Shown here in pieces: positions 19,670-24,722 of a stretch of DNA of 64,000 bases (the first letter of the stretch is position 1; the number at the start of each line of letters is the position of its first letter). The stretch comes from Escherichia phage vB-Eco-KMB23. Location: sequence record OR525702.1, one strand, 5' to 3'. The notes below the pieces were generated by a model. That model worked only from the letters and a program-made list of their open reading frames with translations, was not told where the DNA came from and searched no databases. A program made the position numbers and the translations under genes.

Positions 19670-20638
19670 TTATTTCAGAAGAGTAACCTCAGCGATTTCT
19701 TCCCAACCGTTTTTGTCGGTCATAATAAAGTCAGCAAGATAAAGAGCAGTACGCAGTGAAACATTGCGTAAACGATTAACATTGACTTTCATCCATGATA
19801 ATGCTTTATAAGTTTCTTCATCAGAAAGACCACGCTTTTGCATCATGTCAGTTGAAAGAATAACATCTTCAACCCTGACCATAATTTCTTCATTAGTGTG
19901 AACACCCAAATCCAAATAAACTGAGCGGGACACTAATGCTTGTAAATGTGGAGCAAGTTTAGTACCACGGTCTAATTCGCGGTCAATGTCAACGTTTGTG
20001 ATAAAAACAATCGTTCCTTTAAATTCAAACTCACGCTCAATGCCTTTTTCTTCTAAGTAAGAAGATGCGGTGCTCCAGCAGACTTTACGGGTCTCTCCAG
20101 TGTCCAGAGCAGCTTTCAGAAGATTAAGAATGTCCATATCAGAGAAAACATCCACATCATCAATCAAAAGGACAGAATTCTCTTCACGATTATTCCAAAG
20201 CTGCTCATAAAGACCAATACCAGAGATTTTACCATTAATGCTTTTATATTCAATGTATCCAATATCATTTGCTTTATTTAAAGCTTTATCTAAAGAATAC
20301 GTTTTACCAATACCTGCTGCACCAGAGATAATTAATGAACGAATGTTTCCGTTAATAATACCATTCGTCATCATTCCCATAACATTAAATCTTTTATTAA
20401 TGCGGGTTTTCATATCTTCATACGATTCTTTAACTTCTTCAACTTTTACACCATCATATGAAATGTCTGATTTGTAAACCCAAACACCGCGACGTTTACC
20501 GTCAATTTCAACAAAAACTTTACCATCTCCTTGTGCATCTACCGGAGCATTATCTGGGAACCATTCGCCTAAGAGCTCAAAAGTTCCAGAGATTTCTTTA
20601 CCGAAGTAGATACCCTTATTGATAGTTACAGTTTTCAT
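19670..20638 (-). CDS. P-loop ATPase (AAA-like), about 322 aa
   Basis: Walker A ISGAAGIGKT, Walker B VLLIDDVD, sensor-like IVFITN; start taken at MKTVTINK (GGAG RBS), ORF track adds 4 codons. Confidence 0.65.
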   Translation of the reverse strand: MKTVTINKGIYFGKEISGTFELLGEWFPDNAPVDAQGDGKVFVEIDGKRRGVWVYKSDISYDGVKVEEVKESYEDMKTRINKRFNVMGMMTNGIINGNIRSLIISGAAGIGKTYSLDKALNKANDIGYIEYKSINGKISGIGLYEQLWNNREENSVLLIDDVDVFSDMDILNLLKAALDTGETRKVCWSTASSYLEEKGIEREFEFKGTIVFITNVDIDRELDRGTKLAPHLQALVSRSVYLDLGVHTNEEIMVRVEDVILSTDMMQKRGLSDEETYKALSWMKVNVNRLRNVSLRTALYLADFIMTDKNGWEEIAEVTLLK

Positions 20639-20672
20639 TTTATTCTCCAAATCCGTATCAGTTGATAGTTGT

Positions 20673-20702
20673 ATAGTACCATAAAGCTTTATGCTTGTAA
20701 AC
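20673..20702 (-). promoter_or_regulatory. T4-type early promoter upstream of P-loop ATPase gene
   Basis: Minus strand aaaaatttttcacaaaactGTTTACa ... TACTAT; same motif family as the other early promoters. Confidence 0.5.
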
Positions 20703-20726
20703 AGTTTTGTGAAAAATTTTTGAAAT

Positions 20727-20750
20727 AAAAAAGGGAGCCCGAAGGCTCCC
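20727..20750 (-). terminator. Rho-independent terminator after NTase gene
   Basis: Minus strand GGGAGCCTTCGGGCTCCC followed by TTTTTT. Confidence 0.7.
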
Positions 20751-20752
20751 TA

Positions 20753-21766
20753 TCATTTATAATAACTTCGGTGGTTTTCAAGATAGACCTTCTCAAGGAA
20801 GTCATCCCAGAAACTCATGTCTACTGTTTTAGGCATACCATTCTTAGAAGCTTCAGTAGATGCTGCTTCTACTTGATCGACCACATCTTCCAAAAACTCT
20901 TGAACTGTTTTAAATGGATGTTTACCCAACTTCACGTCGAGAATAAATGGAGCATCTTGGAGTGGATAAATCAAGTCGCCAGTTTTGTAAATTTCCAATA
21001 GTTGAAGTCCACCACGACAAGCATGACTTAGTGCTTTCCAATCAATACCTTCATTAGCTTCGGCCTTACGAGCACGTTCACCATATTCAGCATCTAATTT
21101 GTTCAGTGACTGCTTAAGCTCAATAAGAGAAAGCGTTGTCTGATATTTACGACCCAGCACTGTATAGAACGTTTGTGGACCTGTTTTCTCATGATTATGG
21201 AATACCCATTCACAGAATTCGTTCTCTGGAAGACGATGCTTAATATCTTCAACTTTAGTACGACGCTGCTTAATGGAACCGTCTTCTTGGTAATCAACCC
21301 ATTGCTCAGGGATTTGATTAACTACTTTCAATACATCACGTAATGCAGCCAAACGAGAACCCTTGACGCCGTATTTAGAAGCTTGCTTGCGGACATATCC
21401 TAAATAGGATTTCATGTTAGTCGTATAAAAACGAGAACGGTTGTCTTGAATAAACTTCCACACATCAGGCAAATCAGATTTAACCACTAGTTCAGGTGGA
21501 GTGTGAAGCATATCCAATGCTACAGTTTCACCATCTGCTGCTAATTTAAAGAAATATTTAAGACTGTATAGTTCATGGTCAATATCATCTTTAGTGTTTT
21601 TAGATGATGTGTTGTTAGTGTTTTTACTCATGTGCTCTTTGACATTTCCGATAAGAATATCACGAGCAGGAGGAACAAAGATTTCTTTAAAATCTACATC
21701 AGATTCTGGGGTAGAAGTTCCATAAAGATGACTACCAAAATAGCTTTTCATTACTGTTTTCATCAT
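20753..21766 (-). CDS. Predicted pol-beta-superfamily nucleotidyltransferase, 337 aa
   Basis: N-terminal motif YFGSHLYGTSTPESDVDFKEIFV (GS...[DE]h[DE]h NTase signature); followed by strong terminator hairpin. Confidence 0.55.
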   Translation of the reverse strand: MMKTVMKSYFGSHLYGTSTPESDVDFKEIFVPPARDILIGNVKEHMSKNTNNTSSKNTKDDIDHELYSLKYFFKLAADGETVALDMLHTPPELVVKSDLPDVWKFIQDNRSRFYTTNMKSYLGYVRKQASKYGVKGSRLAALRDVLKVVNQIPEQWVDYQEDGSIKQRRTKVEDIKHRLPENEFCEWVFHNHEKTGPQTFYTVLGRKYQTTLSLIELKQSLNKLDAEYGERARKAEANEGIDWKALSHACRGGLQLLEIYKTGDLIYPLQDAPFILDVKLGKHPFKTVQEFLEDVVDQVEAASTEASKNGMPKTVDMSFWDDFLEKVYLENHRSYYK

Positions 21767-22224
21767 TCAGCCTTATATTCAATAACAGGACATACTTTAG
21801 CTTTACGAGCTTTTAAAAATTCAACGATAATCGATTTCTTGGGTTGAATAGGAGGTAAACCTTTATTTTTCCTATCAATGTTTTCTACGTGTAAAGCATA
21901 ATCCTTTTTCCATTTATAATCTTTATATTTTTCACGCAAATGTACAGGAATAACAAATGAACCAATAATAAGTAAAACAACCAAAAGCGCAAGTATAAAT
22001 GCTGATGGAAGCAAAGTCCATAAACTACCAAAAATAAGCCAACGCTGTAAACTTTCTGCACAAATAATTGTTAGCCCTACGAGTATAGCACACCCAAAAA
22101 TAGAAACGAAAAATGTAGGGATAACAATAGACCAAAAATATGCGCATAGTGTCTTAGGTCGTTGCCATTCATCGTTAAACAATTTGAATAATTTATAGTG
22201 CCAAGAGTTTTCATTAATAATCAT
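21763..22224 (-). CDS. Membrane protein, 153 aa
   Basis: Several hydrophobic helices; stop overlaps the NTase start (ATGA). Confidence 0.55.
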   Translation of the reverse strand: MIINENSWHYKLFKLFNDEWQRPKTLCAYFWSIVIPTFFVSIFGCAILVGLTIICAESLQRWLIFGSLWTLLPSAFILALLVVLLIIGSFVIPVHLREKYKDYKWKKDYALHVENIDRKNKGLPPIQPKKSIIVEFLKARKAKVCPVIEYKAE

Positions 22225-22226
22225 AA

Positions 22227-22748
22227 CTATCCTTTCATTGAAGGCGTAACAGTTGTTAAATACTTAATCATAGCTTCAGCTTCTGATTTTGATAGTGAAA
22301 TTTCTTCACCGTTTTGGCGAATAGAAACAAAATCTGGATGACGATCACCACCAGCTTTTAAAACACACATATAAGTATCAGCTTCGCCTTCAATATTTGA
22401 AATGATTGAAGCAGTTCCACATGAATGCGGTTTTTGATAAATCAATACAGCTTTTCTTCCACCATTTGACTGTTCATAGGCTTTTAATACATCAAACAAA
22501 TCAGTTCTTTTATCAATAGCTAAGATGTTATTTTCATCTTCAATATTAAATCCTTCGGATACTTCATAAAGAGTTACCCATAAATCACCGATGTCAATAA
22601 CAGCATTTACTTTTCCACGGCTTTCAAGAGTATGACAAATTTTCTTGATTTCGTCATAACTCATTTTAATAATATCATCTCCTTGACTAAGGAAGATGTC
22701 ATTTTTAAATTCAACACGAATTAAACCACTTCCACTTGAAATAAACAT
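22227..22748 (-). CDS. Hypothetical protein, 173 aa (paralog of 22755..23321)
   Basis: Shares C-terminal motif SKSEAEAMIKYLTTVTPSM with the neighbour's TKDEAIALKTYLDSVIPTM. Confidence 0.55.
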   Translation of the reverse strand: MFISSGSGLIRVEFKNDIFLSQGDDIIKMSYDEIKKICHTLESRGKVNAVIDIGDLWVTLYEVSEGFNIEDENNILAIDKRTDLFDVLKAYEQSNGGRKAVLIYQKPHSCGTASIISNIEGEADTYMCVLKAGGDRHPDFVSIRQNGEEISLSKSEAEAMIKYLTTVTPSMKG

Positions 22749-22754
22749 ATTTCC

Positions 22755-23321
22755 TCACTTTGAAATCATAGTTGGAATGACAGAATCAAGATAAGTCTTT
22801 AGCGCAATAGCTTCGTCTTTGGTAAATGTGACAATATGTGCTCGAAAATCATCAATTTGACGAATAGTTAAGACATCTCCTTCTTCATAACATTTTGATA
22901 CATTTAAAACAGTTTCATCATTCTGATCGCACTGATCGCAAGCGTTAGTAATAATAGCATTGCAATTTTTAAGCCATTTTAAACTATGTTTTCTTTCATT
23001 AGAATAATAAAAATATTTAATGTAAGTTATAAAATTATCCCAATTATTAATTGATAAGCATATTGACTCGCTTTTAATATTAAATCCTGGGCATGAAGAA
23101 TAAAAATGAATTTTATGCTCATCATTAATGCTTACAATTTTATCAGTGTAAGCGTATTCAATTTGGGTTAAACGAACAATTTCACTAGGTGTAAAATATA
23201 GCATATCGTCTTCTTGCGTCAAACGATACATGTTATTTACTTTTTCTATAGCCAATTCGCCAAAAAGCGGACTAACTTCTAATACTAATCGTTTCATATT
23301 GATTCTCTTCGACTCACTCAC
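22755..23321 (-). CDS. Hypothetical protein, 188 aa, GTG start (or ATG at MKRLV)
   Basis: ORF track; paralogous C-terminus to 22227..22748. Confidence 0.55.
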   Translation of the reverse strand: MSESKRINMKRLVLEVSPLFGELAIEKVNNMYRLTQEDDMLYFTPSEIVRLTQIEYAYTDKIVSINDEHKIHFYSSCPGFNIKSESICLSINNWDNFITYIKYFYYSNERKHSLKWLKNCNAIITNACDQCDQNDETVLNVSKCYEEGDVLTIRQIDDFRAHIVTFTKDEAIALKTYLDSVIPTMISK

Positions 23322-23323
23322 AA

Positions 23324-23428
23324 TTACATACTCCTTTGAATAATATCAATAATGTTGTTCACCAGATTATAAGTAAACATTGGGTAATTATATTGAATCA
23401 TCACATACACAACAAACAAAACTTTCAT
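23324..23428 (-). CDS. Candidate 34-aa hydrophobic peptide (MKVLFVVYVMIQYNYPMFTYNLVNNIIDIIQRSM)
   Basis: Below ORF-track cutoff; found by manual translation; AAGGAG RBS 6 nt upstream of ATG, immediately downstream of an early promoter. Confidence 0.3.
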   Translation of the reverse strand: MKVLFVVYVMIQYNYPMFTYNLVNNIIDIIQRSM

Positions 23429-23444
23429 TCTCTTCTCCTTGACA

Positions 23445-23486
23445 GTTGACAAGATTACTATACCATAACCTTGTCAACTTGTAAAC
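23445..23486 (-). promoter_or_regulatory. Early promoter with overlapping dyad symmetry, start of the NTase operon
   Basis: Minus strand GTTTACA -35 and TATAGT -10; 9-bp inverted repeat GTTGACAAG/CTTGTCAAC (23445-23453 and 23470-23478) brackets the -10. Confidence 0.45.
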
Positions 23487-23488
23487 CA

Positions 23489-23662
23489 TTAAATGACGTT
23501 TTCAATAAAATTCTGAAGCTTTGTATGAGCATCAACCATGATTTTCATTTCTTCTTTGGCGAAAGCTGTACCTCTTTCCCGAGAAGAACATTCATAATCA
23601 GAAACTGCATTAGCATATTCTTCAATTAGCTTCATTAAAAACATCTGCTTTTCAGTTTTCAT
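23489..23662 (-). CDS. Candidate 57-aa small protein (MKTEKQMFLMKLIEEYANAV...)
   Basis: Below ORF-track cutoff; manual translation; start overlaps stop of upstream gene (coupling); coordinates approximate. Confidence 0.3.
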   Translation of the reverse strand: MKTEKQMFLMKLIEEYANAVSDYECSSRERGTAFAKEEMKIMVDAHTKLQNFIENVI

Positions 23663-23846
23663 TATTCCACCTAATCATTTCAAGGTATTGAACTAACTTA
23701 GCTTTGGATTTATCCAAATCCTTTTTAGCTGCTTCTATACCATCGTATGAGTATCCTTCACAATGCTCAACTGCCAATTGGTATGAATCTATTTCAACAT
23801 CACGTGCTAATTTAATGATTTTTTCAAACTGTTCACGTGTTAGCAT
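23652..23846 (-). CDS. Hypothetical small protein, 64 aa (EQ-K family)
   Basis: ORF track; N-terminus MLTREQFEKIIKLARDV. Confidence 0.45.
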   Translation of the reverse strand: MLTREQFEKIIKLARDVEIDSYQLAVEHCEGYSYDGIEAAKKDLDKSKAKLVQYLEMIRWNNEN

Positions 23847-23848
23847 AC

Positions 23849-24052
23849 TTAAACTCTCGTATTATGATCGATAATTTCATCAAGAAACATATCTAAAGCT
23901 TCTACAGCATTATCAACTTTAGCTTCAAGTTCTTCAGCACCTTTATTTGCAATGCCTGACGAAAACCAAGCAAAGTCACTAAGTTCCTCATCTGCTTTGC
24001 GAATTAAAGCTACCAATTCCTTAATTTTATCCGCTTGTTCGATACTAATCAT
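23849..24052 (-). CDS. Hypothetical small protein (start adjusted to [16 protein letters not shown])
   Basis: ORF track gives 23849..24088; internal Met avoids overlap with upstream gene. Confidence 0.45.
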   Translation of the reverse strand: MISIEQADKIKELVALIRKADEELSDFAWFSSGIANKGAEELEAKVDNAVEALDMFLDEIIDHNTRV

Positions 24053-24240
24053 TATTCCACCACATATGAAAGAGAGAATATTGCACACGCCATGTGAGTT
24101 GCAACTTCATCACACATATTATAACGTTTCTTAAGAAGTTCTACAAGTTCTTCACTAGTAACTTCATCCATGTCGACGAAAAAATCACCATTAATGATGA
24201 CGTAGATATTTCCTTCTTGATTGAGTGCTTCAATTTTCAT
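24052..24240 (-). CDS. Hypothetical small protein (start adjusted to [10 protein letters not shown])
   Basis: ORF-track start lies inside a promoter; internal ATG preceded by GAGGAG RBS. Confidence 0.45.
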
Positions 24241-24268
24241 GATGTTCTCCTCTTTATCCGATAGTTGT

Positions 24269-24298
24269 ATAGTATCACAGCTCAAACGGAAAGTAAAC
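24269..24298 (-). promoter_or_regulatory. T4-type early promoter
   Basis: Minus strand GTTTAC ... TACTAT; downstream GAGGAG RBS. Confidence 0.5.
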
Positions 24299-24308
24299 CG
24301 GTAAAATG

Positions 24309-24330
24309 AAAAAAGTCTCCCGAAGGAGAC
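24309..24330 (-). terminator. Rho-independent terminator
   Basis: Minus strand GTCTCCTTCGGGAGAC followed by TTTTTT. Confidence 0.7.
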
Positions 24331-24335
24331 TAATG

Positions 24336-24722
24336 TTATTCGAGGGAAAGAAGATACTTACTCTGGTAAAACATTCCAGTAATATCATCTATCGTGCTTT
24401 GAATGGCTGGAGGCATTTCTTTATAAATGCTGTTAGATTGGTCTAGTATGCGATCAATCATTTTAATTGTGTCGGTAGGAAGTTTACTGGCATCTGGAAT
24501 TGAAGGTGTGTATTTTCTACCAGAATACCCCAAATATTGCTCACCAAATTTATCAATCAAATCTGGCAACTCGGAGAAAATAAAATCGTATGCTTTGTGT
24601 CTAGCATAACTTTTAGTTTCAAAATGTGCAGAATGAAAATAAGCTTGTGCAGCCATTAATAAACCTAAGTATTCATCTGCCTTTGAAGGTTTTCCACTTT
24701 GTGAAAAGTCGCTGAATTTCAT
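24336..24722 (-). CDS. Hypothetical protein, 128 aa, downstream of rI
   Basis: ORF track; followed by terminator hairpin. Confidence 0.55.

Follow-up and report, generated by a model that had tools for sequence, protein, structure and literature searches.

An RlaP-family nucleotidyltransferase in a T4-type early gene block of an Escherichia phage as a candidate for tRNA-repair counter-defence

The window analyzed here, a stretch of 64,000 nucleotides from Escherichia phage vB-Eco-KMB23 (OR525702.1), carries at positions 20727-23490 a short gene block that closes with a gene for a protein with a nucleotidyltransferase signature. What this block is, on which substrate the enzyme may act and whether its neighbors serve the same function are the questions that this locus raises. 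A first-pass annotation had described a promoter-to-terminator early operon coding for a small hydrophobic peptide, two paralogs, a membrane protein and the nucleotidyltransferase; all of these elements lie on the minus strand where it had placed them (Table 1).

Table 1. Features of the gene block and its borders in the window
Feature	Coordinates	Strand	Remarks
Early-type sigma-70 promoter	23457..23485	-	10/12 consensus matches
Dyad/hairpin, -10 element in loop	23444..23479	-	arms 23466-23479 and 23444-23457
mobD.2 ortholog, 34-aa hydrophobic peptide	23324..23428	-	91% identical to T4 MobD.2
mobD.1 ortholog, 188 aa from GTG	22755..23321	-	88% identical to T4 MobD.1
Second y05I-family paralog, 173 aa, missing from T4	22227..22748	-	Pfam T4_y05I_N + T4_y05I_C
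153-aa membrane protein (MEM, PHROG 944)	21763..22224	-	two hydrophobic segments, basic C-terminal tail
nrdC.11 ortholog, 337-aa RlaP-family Pol-beta nucleotidyltransferase	20753..21766	-	97.6% identical to T4 NrdC.11
Intrinsic terminator	20723..20751	-	8-bp GC-rich stem, UUCG loop, U-run

By sequence comparison, the block is the counterpart of the T4 region mobD.2 – mobD.1 – [mobD] – nrdC.11 (NC_000866, 55.4-57.9 kb), with which it shares gene order, strand, a promoter with a dyad and a terminator, and the source genome of the window is a Tequatrovirus (T4-like). With the block as query, megablast found 670 phage records, and in 428 of these the match extended over at least 80% of the block. 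It is a standard Tevenvirinae early gene block that is already known, and not a new module. The first-pass annotation had raised the possibility of a conserved T4 module of already known function; judged from the identities to the T4 orthologs it is such a module, whereas its function is predicted rather than known. T4 differs from the window in that the HNH homing endonuclease gene mobD takes the place of the genes for the 173-aa paralog and the membrane protein. Since mobD (at least 95% identity) occurs in about 47 phage records and the membrane protein (at least 80%) in 426, the window represents the majority arrangement and T4 the exception. With two of the usual module genes missing, T4 represents the complete module poorly. 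Every protein of the block was without a match in NCBIfam, and a search of positions 20500-24500 against Rfam gave none at gathering score. The region adjoining rI is hyperplastic.

The genes of the block are tightly packed and co-oriented, with an early-type promoter at one border and an intrinsic terminator at the other. The promoter consists of TTTACA (23485-23480), a 17 nt spacer and TATAGT (23462-23457) with an upstream TG (extended -10), and the identical promoter sequence precedes mobD.2 in T4. The terminator, called strong by the first-pass annotation, reads AGGGAGCC-UUCG-GGCUCCCU followed by U6 (20751-20732); Dhakavirus and Mosigvirus possess a terminator of like architecture with a different stem sequence. 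Simple patterns for T4 late promoters (TATAAATA) and for MotA-box middle promoters found neither inside the block. T4 mobD.2, mobD.1, mobD and nrdC.11 belong to the early RNA class (PMC9697503, supplements 4 and 6), with mobD.1 being early as RNA and as protein and nrdC.11 early as RNA and middle as protein (PMC9697503). Together with the promoter consensus, the early RNA class of the T4 orthologs marks the block as an early transcription unit, the expression data being those of T4. Early after infection, host RNA polymerase would start at the block's own early-type promoter and stop at the UUCG-loop terminator after nrdC.11. Another early-type promoter lies upstream at about 24297, and no terminator was found between it and the block promoter, so that read-through from upstream probably adds to transcription of the block. 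The early operon of the first-pass annotation thus stands as regards promoter, terminator and early expression, but the unit probably does not run strictly from a single promoter to a single terminator. In phage fPS-2, a predicted early promoter sits inside mobD.2 and not at the dyad, and it is for this reason without bearing on the block promoter.

The first gene codes for the hydrophobic peptide MobD.2 (MKVLFVVYVMIQYNYPMFTYNLVNNIIDIIQRSM) and indeed has a strong Shine-Dalgarno sequence, AAGGAG, 6 nt ahead of its ATG. Its product falls into PHROG 3515 (E = 6.5e-22) and was detected by tblastn in 840 phage records; a literature search on mobD.2 returned nothing relevant.

The two following proteins are, as proposed, paralogs (27% identity, E = 3e-9), and profile matches assign both to the MobD.1 family (Pfam T4_y05I). 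The 188-aa protein scores 141 bits against T4_y05I_N and 82 bits against T4_y05I_C, and the 173-aa protein 116 bits (1.1e-33) and 82 bits (3.4e-23), respectively, with cut-offs of 24.9 and 27. The start of mobD.1 is ambiguous, as an ATG at 23297 would give a protein of 180 aa. The 173-aa paralog was found by tblastn in 460 phage records, nearly all of Tequatrovirus type, and a scan of IMG/VR with the y05I profile gave 3 loci. In the structural model of MobD.1, two four-strand-plus-helix repeats form one N-terminal domain with a PUR/Whirly-like fold, resembling Pur-alpha (3k44), MRP1/2 (2gia) and p24 (1l3a) at a sequence identity of just 4-10%; unlike in those proteins, neither PUR nor Whirly is matched in Pfam. 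The N-domain is thus predicted to be of a single-strand nucleic-acid-binding type. The C-terminal domain, which might be a third and dimerizing PUR repeat, is modelled with a pLDDT below 50, and hhalign detected no significant similarity between it and either N-domain repeat (best P = 0.007). A BFVD fold search with the MobD.1 model returned family members only, and no literature on the function of y05I or MobD.1 was found.

An alternative explanation takes the MobD.1-family proteins for transcription factors that bind the dyad on both sides of the -10 element and thereby regulate their own operon, the nucleotidyltransferase being a co-transcribed passenger. The name of the Pfam family, 'y05I-like putative transcription factor', speaks for this, as do the likeness of the N-domain to the transcription regulators Pur-alpha, Whirly and PC4 and the fact that the dyad arms differ between genera and the proteins likewise. 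The dyad itself is real: its arms are complementary at 13 of 14 positions with 8 nt between them. As RNA it would form a 15-bp stem, and the corresponding 86-nt stretch folds with a dG of -23.3 kcal/mol (z = -4.45), which none of 200 shuffled sequences equalled. The arm sequences vary among Tequatrovirus, Mosigvirus and Gelderlandvirus while their complementarity is kept: all 88 of 88 cells are paired and nine of 11 pairs have changed on both sides, a result reached by none of 500 shuffles. The covariation identifies the promoter dyad as a hairpin. All one-sided arm changes yield G-U pairs on the sense strand, and since this compatibility exists on the sense strand only, pairing of RNA is favored over a symmetric operator. 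The RNA hairpin is possible only in transcripts started further upstream. Further evidence against a regulator of this kind comes from Gelderlandvirus, where the hairpin is accompanied by no more than an 81-aa C-domain protein, and from Dhakavirus and Gaprivervirus, which carry full-length y05I and in which, by eye, neither mobD.2 nor an obvious promoter is seen upstream. PUR/Whirly folds, moreover, bind single strands and not palindromic duplexes. We thus regard autoregulation by these proteins as very unlikely.

The 337-aa protein NrdC.11 carries the GS...SDVDF signature noted before, namely G11-S12 and S22-D23-V24-D25-F26, and is 100% identical to a RefSeq protein named "nucleotidyltransferase". 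Its profile matches place it in RlaP (PF10127), an RNA-ligase-associated Pol-beta nucleotidyltransferase family (44 bits, cut-off 23, E = 2.9e-11), whereby the alignment comprises the N-terminal nucleotidyltransferase half only (profile positions 23-142 of 249), and in PHROG 388 (1.5e-137). Each of 32 diverse relatives (34-55% identical) likewise matched RlaP, with a best E of 2.2e-19, and nothing else. Clustered at 50% identity, the family amounts to 3716 clusters with E <= 1e-3, for most of which the alignment runs over the full length. Homologs that are 28-70% and 34-55% identical all retain G11, D23 and D25 and nearly all retain S12, and at position 85 they have D, with E in two distant phages; NrdC.11 hence combines three conserved catalytic carboxylates with the G[GS] motif expected of a Pol-beta nucleotidyltransferase fold. 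Sequence matches in the PDB, sought with the single sequence and two profiles, included nothing relevant. An AlphaFold2 model built from 13 sequences of at least 77% identity (pLDDT 55.6) leaves residues 1-64 unmodelled and is too poor for a fold search; in this low-confidence model residues 58-336 are almost all helical.

Since generic Pol-beta motifs of the type GS...DxD are also found in defence and signalling enzymes, and the gene is an accessory one that is dispensable in T4, NrdC.11 could be a CD-NTase-like cyclase, an MNT-type antitoxin against a HEPN toxin or an AbiE-type superinfection-exclusion toxin. These analogies, together with that of a sponge, had been drawn in the first-pass annotation and found no support. 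No PADLOC defence-system model matches any of six proteins, and the match to NTP_transf_2 stays below threshold (E = 0.091), in line with the exclusive RlaP matches of the relatives. The block contains no HEPN or effector partner, the neighbors being y05I, the membrane protein and an AAA ATPase, and bacterial homologs adjoin RtcB or Hen1 and not defence effectors. We consider a role of this type highly improbable. What survives of the anti-defence idea is, by analogy, a possible counter-defence through RNA repair, while its other senses are unsupported.

For the RlaP family, activity data have been reported in a 2025 preprint, which also names T4 NrdC.11 as a member (PMC12776372). Two Pseudomonas RlaPs add 1-2 NMP to RNA 3'-OH ends, with Mn2+ being preferred (PMC12776372). 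They favor mimics of damaged tRNA, and here the 5' half of a cleaved-tRNA mimic, and rescue aminoacylation of a tRNA missing one nucleotide (PMC12776372). RlaPs also label rRNA, full-length tRNA and tRNA fragments with little NTP specificity (PMC12776372). As characterized RlaPs choose nucleotides poorly, it is doubtful how efficiently true repair would proceed, a point also raised by the authors of that study (PMC12776372). NrdC.11 shares with the RlaPs of the Pseudomonas RtcB operons the Pfam family, the GS and DxD motifs and a third acidic residue, as well as a layout with the nucleotidyltransferase domain at the N-terminus and a long helical region after it, the latter in NrdC.11 according to the low-confidence model; in the crystal structure of PfRlaP, the last helix of the C-terminal helical domain packs back onto the nucleotidyltransferase domain (PMC12776372). 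In contrast to the Pseudomonas proteins, NrdC.11 belongs to sequence cluster 5 instead of 1a (PMC12776372), carries at residues 56-63 a conserved insert, KNT-DD-D, and is encoded by a gene that is not adjacent to an RNA ligase gene.

Within the same family, a repair activity has to be weighed against an extension of RNA 3' ends that does not serve the anticodon loop, such as re-addition of tRNA 3'-terminal nucleotides that host toxins have removed or blocked, or tailing of host or phage RNAs that changes their stability during early takeover. The broad labelling of RNAs by RlaPs, the missing ligase neighbor in the phage and the early expression would all be compatible with this. The preference for the 5' half of a cleaved tRNA mimic argues against it, as does the neighborhood of the bacterial genes: of 80 loci from bacteria or archaea that encode a full-length NrdC.11-like protein, eight have RtcB no more than 5 kb away and 3-4 have Hen1, and one Nitrosospira locus has RtcB, the NrdC.11-like gene and Hen1 in a same-strand array. 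RlaP and RNA ligases show matching distributions among jumbo phages (PMC7824862). RNA ligase or kinase genes are present neither in the block nor in the 40-62 kb region of T4 (about 15 kb on one side and 4 kb on the other). An RNA 3'-end extension of this kind appears unlikely to us while keeping an appreciable probability.

We favor, with moderate confidence, that the block is a T4-type early block whose RlaP protein NrdC.11 acts in tRNA repair as counter-defence; the RNA substrate and the repair role are what we infer here. Where 'excising' anticodon nucleases of the host, of the RloC type, have cut nucleotides out of the anticodon loop of a tRNA, NrdC.11 would put them back, after which the Pnk/Rnl1 pathway of the phage could seal the tRNA into a functional molecule. 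T4 Pnk and Rnl1 follow a like logic in the same phage lineage, since they repair host-cleaved tRNA against the anticodon nuclease PrrC. They merely heal and seal the ends, however, whereas NrdC.11 would by analogy add back missing nucleotides, and their genes are not adjacent to nrdC.11. The segment from nrdC.11 to mobD.3 can be deleted in T4 (PMC9825161), and this dispensability fits the expectation for an accessory or counter-defence function.

Whether the neighbors of NrdC.11 take part is a separate matter. The membrane protein has two hydrophobic segments of ~30 residues each and a +8 C-terminal tail, and its stop overlaps the nrdC.11 start in an ATGA (21763-21766), as the first-pass annotation had seen. 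It occurs in 873 phage records. In every MEM-bearing Tevenvirinae locus examined, from seven genera, a y05I-domain gene (in part the C-domain only) lies directly upstream; two more distant loci carry MEM with no y05I match. The stop-start overlap with NrdC.11 occurs in four genera. The synteny y05I(_C)–MEM–NrdC.11 is kept across the sampled Tevenvirinae genera. MobD.1-family proteins and MEM are thus conserved neighbors of NrdC.11 and may be its partners, perhaps also physically. More distant phages of Vibrio, Aeromonas and Sinorhizobium have NrdC.11 without y05I or membrane partners, so that these two are not obligatory cofactors. The gene products might also share a transcript and nothing else, with MEM and MobD.2 acting at the envelope, e.g. 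in exclusion or lysis timing near rI, and y05I and NrdC.11 being unrelated to this. Phages with NrdC.11 alone would agree with such a separation, as would T4, which lost MEM and the second paralog to mobD and retains NrdC.11, and the location beside rI in a hyperplastic region. The y05I–MEM adjacency in all seven genera and the overlap in four of them speak against it, and we regard a complete separation as unlikely. Improbable as well, and put forward here as speculation, is a membrane-tethered RNA-end repair complex in which a y05I-domain strand binder, the two-segment, basic-tailed MEM and NrdC.11 would restore RloC-excised tRNA nucleotides, with the covarying hairpin, whose loop holds the -10 element, as a distinct RNA-level control on read-through transcripts only.

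As a discovery the block is of little importance, the nucleotidyltransferase having been noted since 2006 (COG3541) and named RlaP in the 2025 preprint; its value is that of a test case. The y05I–membrane–NrdC.11 synteny, the predicted PUR/Whirly-like fold of MobD.1, the bacterial RtcB and Hen1 neighbors and the covarying promoter hairpin provide experimental handles. It has been proposed that RloC-type nucleases overcome the tRNA repair of phages through excision of a nucleotide; the obvious candidate for an antidote would be a phage RlaP such as NrdC.11.

All elements that the first-pass annotation had read as an early operon ending in a pol-beta-type nucleotidyltransferase gene are present on the minus strand, as judged from the ORF list, the promoter and terminator scans and inspection of the sequence, and its reading of the operon architecture was right (see table). 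Where that annotation had called for a comparison with T4, the outcome is that the block is an already known, conserved T4-type module. A megablast search with 20600-23600 matched 670 phage records, 428 of them with at least 80% query coverage, nearly all Escherichia, Shigella or Yersinia T4-like phages with a top identity of 97.8%. The T4 RefSeq record carries nrdC.10, nrdC.11, mobD, mobD.1, mobD.2, mobD.2a-mobD.5, rI.-1 and rI in the order and on the strand seen in the window, and labels nrdC.11 "nucleotidyltransferase" and mobD an HNH homing endonuclease.

Features of the block and of comparison loci (coordinates without an L-number refer to the window)
Feature	Coordinates	Strand	T4 counterpart (identity)	Remarks
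Promoter	23485-23457	minus		TTTACA-17 nt-TATAGT, TG upstream; promoter scan and sequence read
Dyad around -10 element	arms 23466-23479 and 23444-23457	minus
34-aa hydrophobic ORF (mobD.2)	23324-23428	minus	MobD.2 (91%)	behind AAGGAG
188-aa ORF (mobD.1)	22755-23321	minus	MobD.1 (88%)	GTG start; alternative ATG at 23297 (180 aa)
173-aa ORF		minus	none	ORF list; distant paralog of MobD.1 (26% identity)
153-aa ORF (membrane protein)		minus	none	ORF list
337-aa ORF (nrdC.11)		minus	NrdC.11 (97.6%)	ATG overlaps 153-aa stop (ATGA)
Terminator	20751-20723	minus		8-bp GC-rich, UUCG loop, U-run
326-aa downstream ORF (nrdC.10)	19670-20650	minus	NrdC.10 (99%)
nrdC.10 early-type promoter	20673-20701	minus		GTTTACA...TACTAT
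mobD.2a ORF, window	23489-23662	minus		57 aa
mobD.2a ORF, T4	L003 4050-4166			38 aa
mobD, T4	L003 2430-3209			HNH homing endonuclease
Endonuclease gene, RB16	L014 2487-3020			HNH homing endonuclease
Stand-alone y05I C-domain genes	L016 3625-3870; L017 3011-3256; L004 2771-3001; L018 3049-3270; L019 3037-3267

In T4, mobD occupies the exact place of the 173-aa and 153-aa genes of the window, while promoter and dyad are the same except for one G-to-A change. As mobD at ≥95% identity is found in about 47 records, compared with 426 for the membrane protein at ≥80% identity and 460 in total for the 173-aa paralog, the arrangement of the window is the common one and T4 is exceptional. The mobD insertion in T4 goes along with the loss of both the second y05I paralog and the membrane protein. 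Both T4 and RB16 carry an HNH homing endonuclease gene directly upstream of nrdC.11 and overlapping its 5′ end, and the conserved nrdC.11 start may be a recurrent homing target. T4 mobD.2a, whose frame is shifted by a 1-nt difference from the window copy, looks truncated. Directly after the terminator, nrdC.10 encodes an AAA/STAND-like ATPase (weak Pfam matches, all under the gathering cut-offs) and is preceded by its own promoter, within a partially palindromic sequence. Misnaming by propagation is widespread among public phage records: NrdC.11 and NrdC.10 are often labelled 'thioredoxin', and MobD.1 and MobD.4 'molybdopterin-guanine dinucleotide biosynthesis protein MobD', labels that apparently go back to the nrdC.x and mobD.x gene names. 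A T4 time course of transcriptome and proteome (PMC9697503, supplementary files 4 and 6) classifies mobD.1 and mobD as early at both the RNA and the protein level and nrdC.11 as early RNA but middle protein; mobD.2 is early RNA, and its protein was not detected. Viable genome-reduced T4 has lost nrdC.11-mobD.3 among other fragments (PMC9825161).

Both the 188-aa and the 173-aa protein contain the Pfam domains T4_y05I_N and T4_y05I_C, described as "putative transcription factor". The family is small: 5.8 billion proteins searched with a profile gave 52 clusters, and the minority of these clusters that carry a source name all come from T4-like phages or enterobacterial assemblies. In an AF2 model from a 20-sequence alignment, residues 1-100 form two four-strand-plus-helix repeats (block-mean pLDDT 70-92), by which the N-domain is predicted to adopt a PUR/Whirly-like fold, typical of single-stranded DNA/RNA binders; the C-domain gave no resolved fold. 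The window MobD.1 carries a tandem duplication of three residues, CDQCDQ (residues ~125-131), that is missing in T4 and most relatives. Two metagenomic proteins look like products of recombination or deletion inside the block, P0140 fusing a MobD.1-type N-terminal portion with the C-terminal portion of the 173-aa paralog and P0170 an N-terminal y05I fragment with the C-terminal portion of NrdC.11. The 153-aa membrane protein (PHROG 944, with homologs in 873 phage records) has hydrophobic segments at 27-56 and 64-94 and a C-terminal tail of 59 residues with a net charge of +8.

We compared gene order in 27 loci by an HMM scan of their ORFs. In Tequatro-, Mosig-, Dhaka-, Gapriver-, Jiaoda-, Gelderland- and Karamvirus, the gene directly upstream of that for the membrane protein encodes a y05I-domain protein, either full-length or in a C-domain-only form of 73-81 aa. 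The start of nrdC.11 overlaps the membrane-protein stop in Tequatro-, Mosig-, Dhaka- and Gaprivervirus, and two or three small ORFs separate the two genes in Jiaoda- and Gelderlandvirus. An Acinetobacter phage (one small ORF between them) and a Serratia phage (~2.7 kb apart) have the membrane protein and NrdC.11 without a y05I match, and Vibrio, Aeromonas and Sinorhizobium phages have NrdC.11 without either. This suggests that y05I, membrane protein and NrdC.11 are functionally linked, above all the y05I C-domain and the membrane protein. As the sole y05I member of Karam-, Gelderland- and Jiaodavirus is a stand-alone C-domain protein always encoded directly before the membrane-protein gene, the conserved partner would be the C-domain and not the PUR-like N-domain.

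A perfect dyad is found at the same place before mobD.2 in three genera (window 23444-23479; L006 2113-2150; L015; L017), with a different sequence in each: 5′ arm AGTTGACAAGGTTA, loop TGGTATAG and 3′ arm TAATCTTGTCAACT in Tequatrovirus; TTGGTAGGACTA, TGTTATAG and TAGTCCTACCAA in Mosigvirus; ATGATGAGATA, TGTTATAAT and TATCTCATCAT in Gelderlandvirus. In an arms-only alignment of these three lineages, with the arms chosen as complementary stretches and the loop swapped for a constant string so that a 1-nt offset did not arise, 88 of 88 cells were paired and both sides had changed in 9 of 11 pairs, which was reached by none of 500 shuffles; sliding the partners lowered pairing to 28-72%. One Mosigvirus carries a G:C-to-A:T double change, and three one-sided changes (A-to-G, G-to-A and C-to-T) each leave the sense strand paired, as G-U or A-U. 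The covariation and the G-U pairs, confined to the sense strand, imply a putative RNA hairpin under selection. Because the -10 element lies in the loop, the promoter's own transcript holds the 3′ arm only, and only read-through RNA from upstream would be able to form the hairpin; the terminator scan found no terminator between this promoter and an early-type promoter at about 24297. The hairpin might serve in RNA processing or stability. A role as an operator bound by the y05I proteins is a poorer fit, since Gelderlandvirus possesses the hairpin but only a C-domain y05I protein, and Dhaka- and Gaprivervirus encode full-length y05I, yet no mobD.2 was found there and no obvious upstream promoter was apparent by eye. 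Since 8-bp dyads also surround the -10 element at two other early-type promoters of the window (31355 and 16261, minus strand), such dyads may occur more generally at T4-type early promoters.

The first-pass annotation placed the 337-aa protein (N-terminus MMKTVMKSYFGSHLYGTSTPESDVDF) correctly in the nucleotidyltransferase superfamily, but the relatives it named, CD-NTases, MNT antitoxins and AbiE-like toxins, were not the nearest ones. Pfam assigns the protein to RlaP (PF10127, "RNA repair pathway DNA polymerase beta family") with a score of 44 bits (cut-off 23), the alignment spanning its N-terminal half only; the generic NTP_transf_2 model stayed below threshold, and PADLOC defence models matched neither this nor any neighbouring protein. 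It also matches PHROG 388 "nucleotidyltransferase" (1.5e-137). By tblastn, NrdC.11 occurs in 1517 phage records, from Straboviridae with Escherichia, Klebsiella, Aeromonas, Acinetobacter and Vibrio hosts, and in Sinorhizobium phage phiM12. A HMMER search of 1.84 billion cluster representatives gave 3716 clusters at E ≤ 1e-3, and almost all of the best 150 align full-length. All 32 relatives aligned from this set (34-55% identical) match RlaP and share G11, G16, S22, D23, D25, N57, D61, Y132, R231, D242, K244, H248, R251 and P268, with D85 nearly invariant. G11-S12, D23, D25 and D/E at 85, kept in phage homologs down to 28% identity, are the G[GS] motif and the three catalytic carboxylates to be expected. 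The AF2 model of NrdC.11 was poor, and no solved structure matched it in sequence.

Orthologs of nrdC.11 were assigned to the COG3541 nucleotidyltransferases in 2006 (PMC1524935). A December 2025 preprint characterised two Pseudomonas RlaPs, which extend RNA 3′-OH ends by one or two NMPs, favour a cleaved-tRNA mimic and Mn2+, are inactive on DNA or protein and partially rescue aminoacylation of a tRNA from whose anticodon loop one nucleotide is missing; it explicitly includes "T4NrdC.11" in the family (cluster 5 of its sequence-similarity network) and proposes RlaP as an antidote to RloC-like nucleases that excise a nucleotide after cleavage (PMC12776372). A jumbo-phage comparison makes the same prediction for RlaP, which tracks RNA ligases (PMC7824862). 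We surveyed one genome per bacterial or archaeal species and clustered the neighbours of 80 full-length NrdC.11-like genes (30-53% identical). RtcB lies within 5 kb in 8 of the 80 loci (Pfam RtcB E = 3e-124) and Hen1 nearby in three or four (Hen1_L E = 1e-92 to 9e-114), with all three genes in a same-strand array at one Nitrosospira locus. In four bacterial genomes (L064, L073, L074 and L094), an HD_4-domain protein (Pfam E = 4.5e-21) is encoded adjoining or overlapping the NrdC.11-like gene and could be a further recurrent partner beside RtcB and Hen1. No ligase gene adjoins nrdC.11 in the window or in the T4 annotation. The RtcB and Hen1 neighbours indicate that the link to RNA repair holds for the NrdC.11-like subfamily in cells, and for phage NrdC.11 this function is a published prediction, backed by the biochemistry of its homologs.
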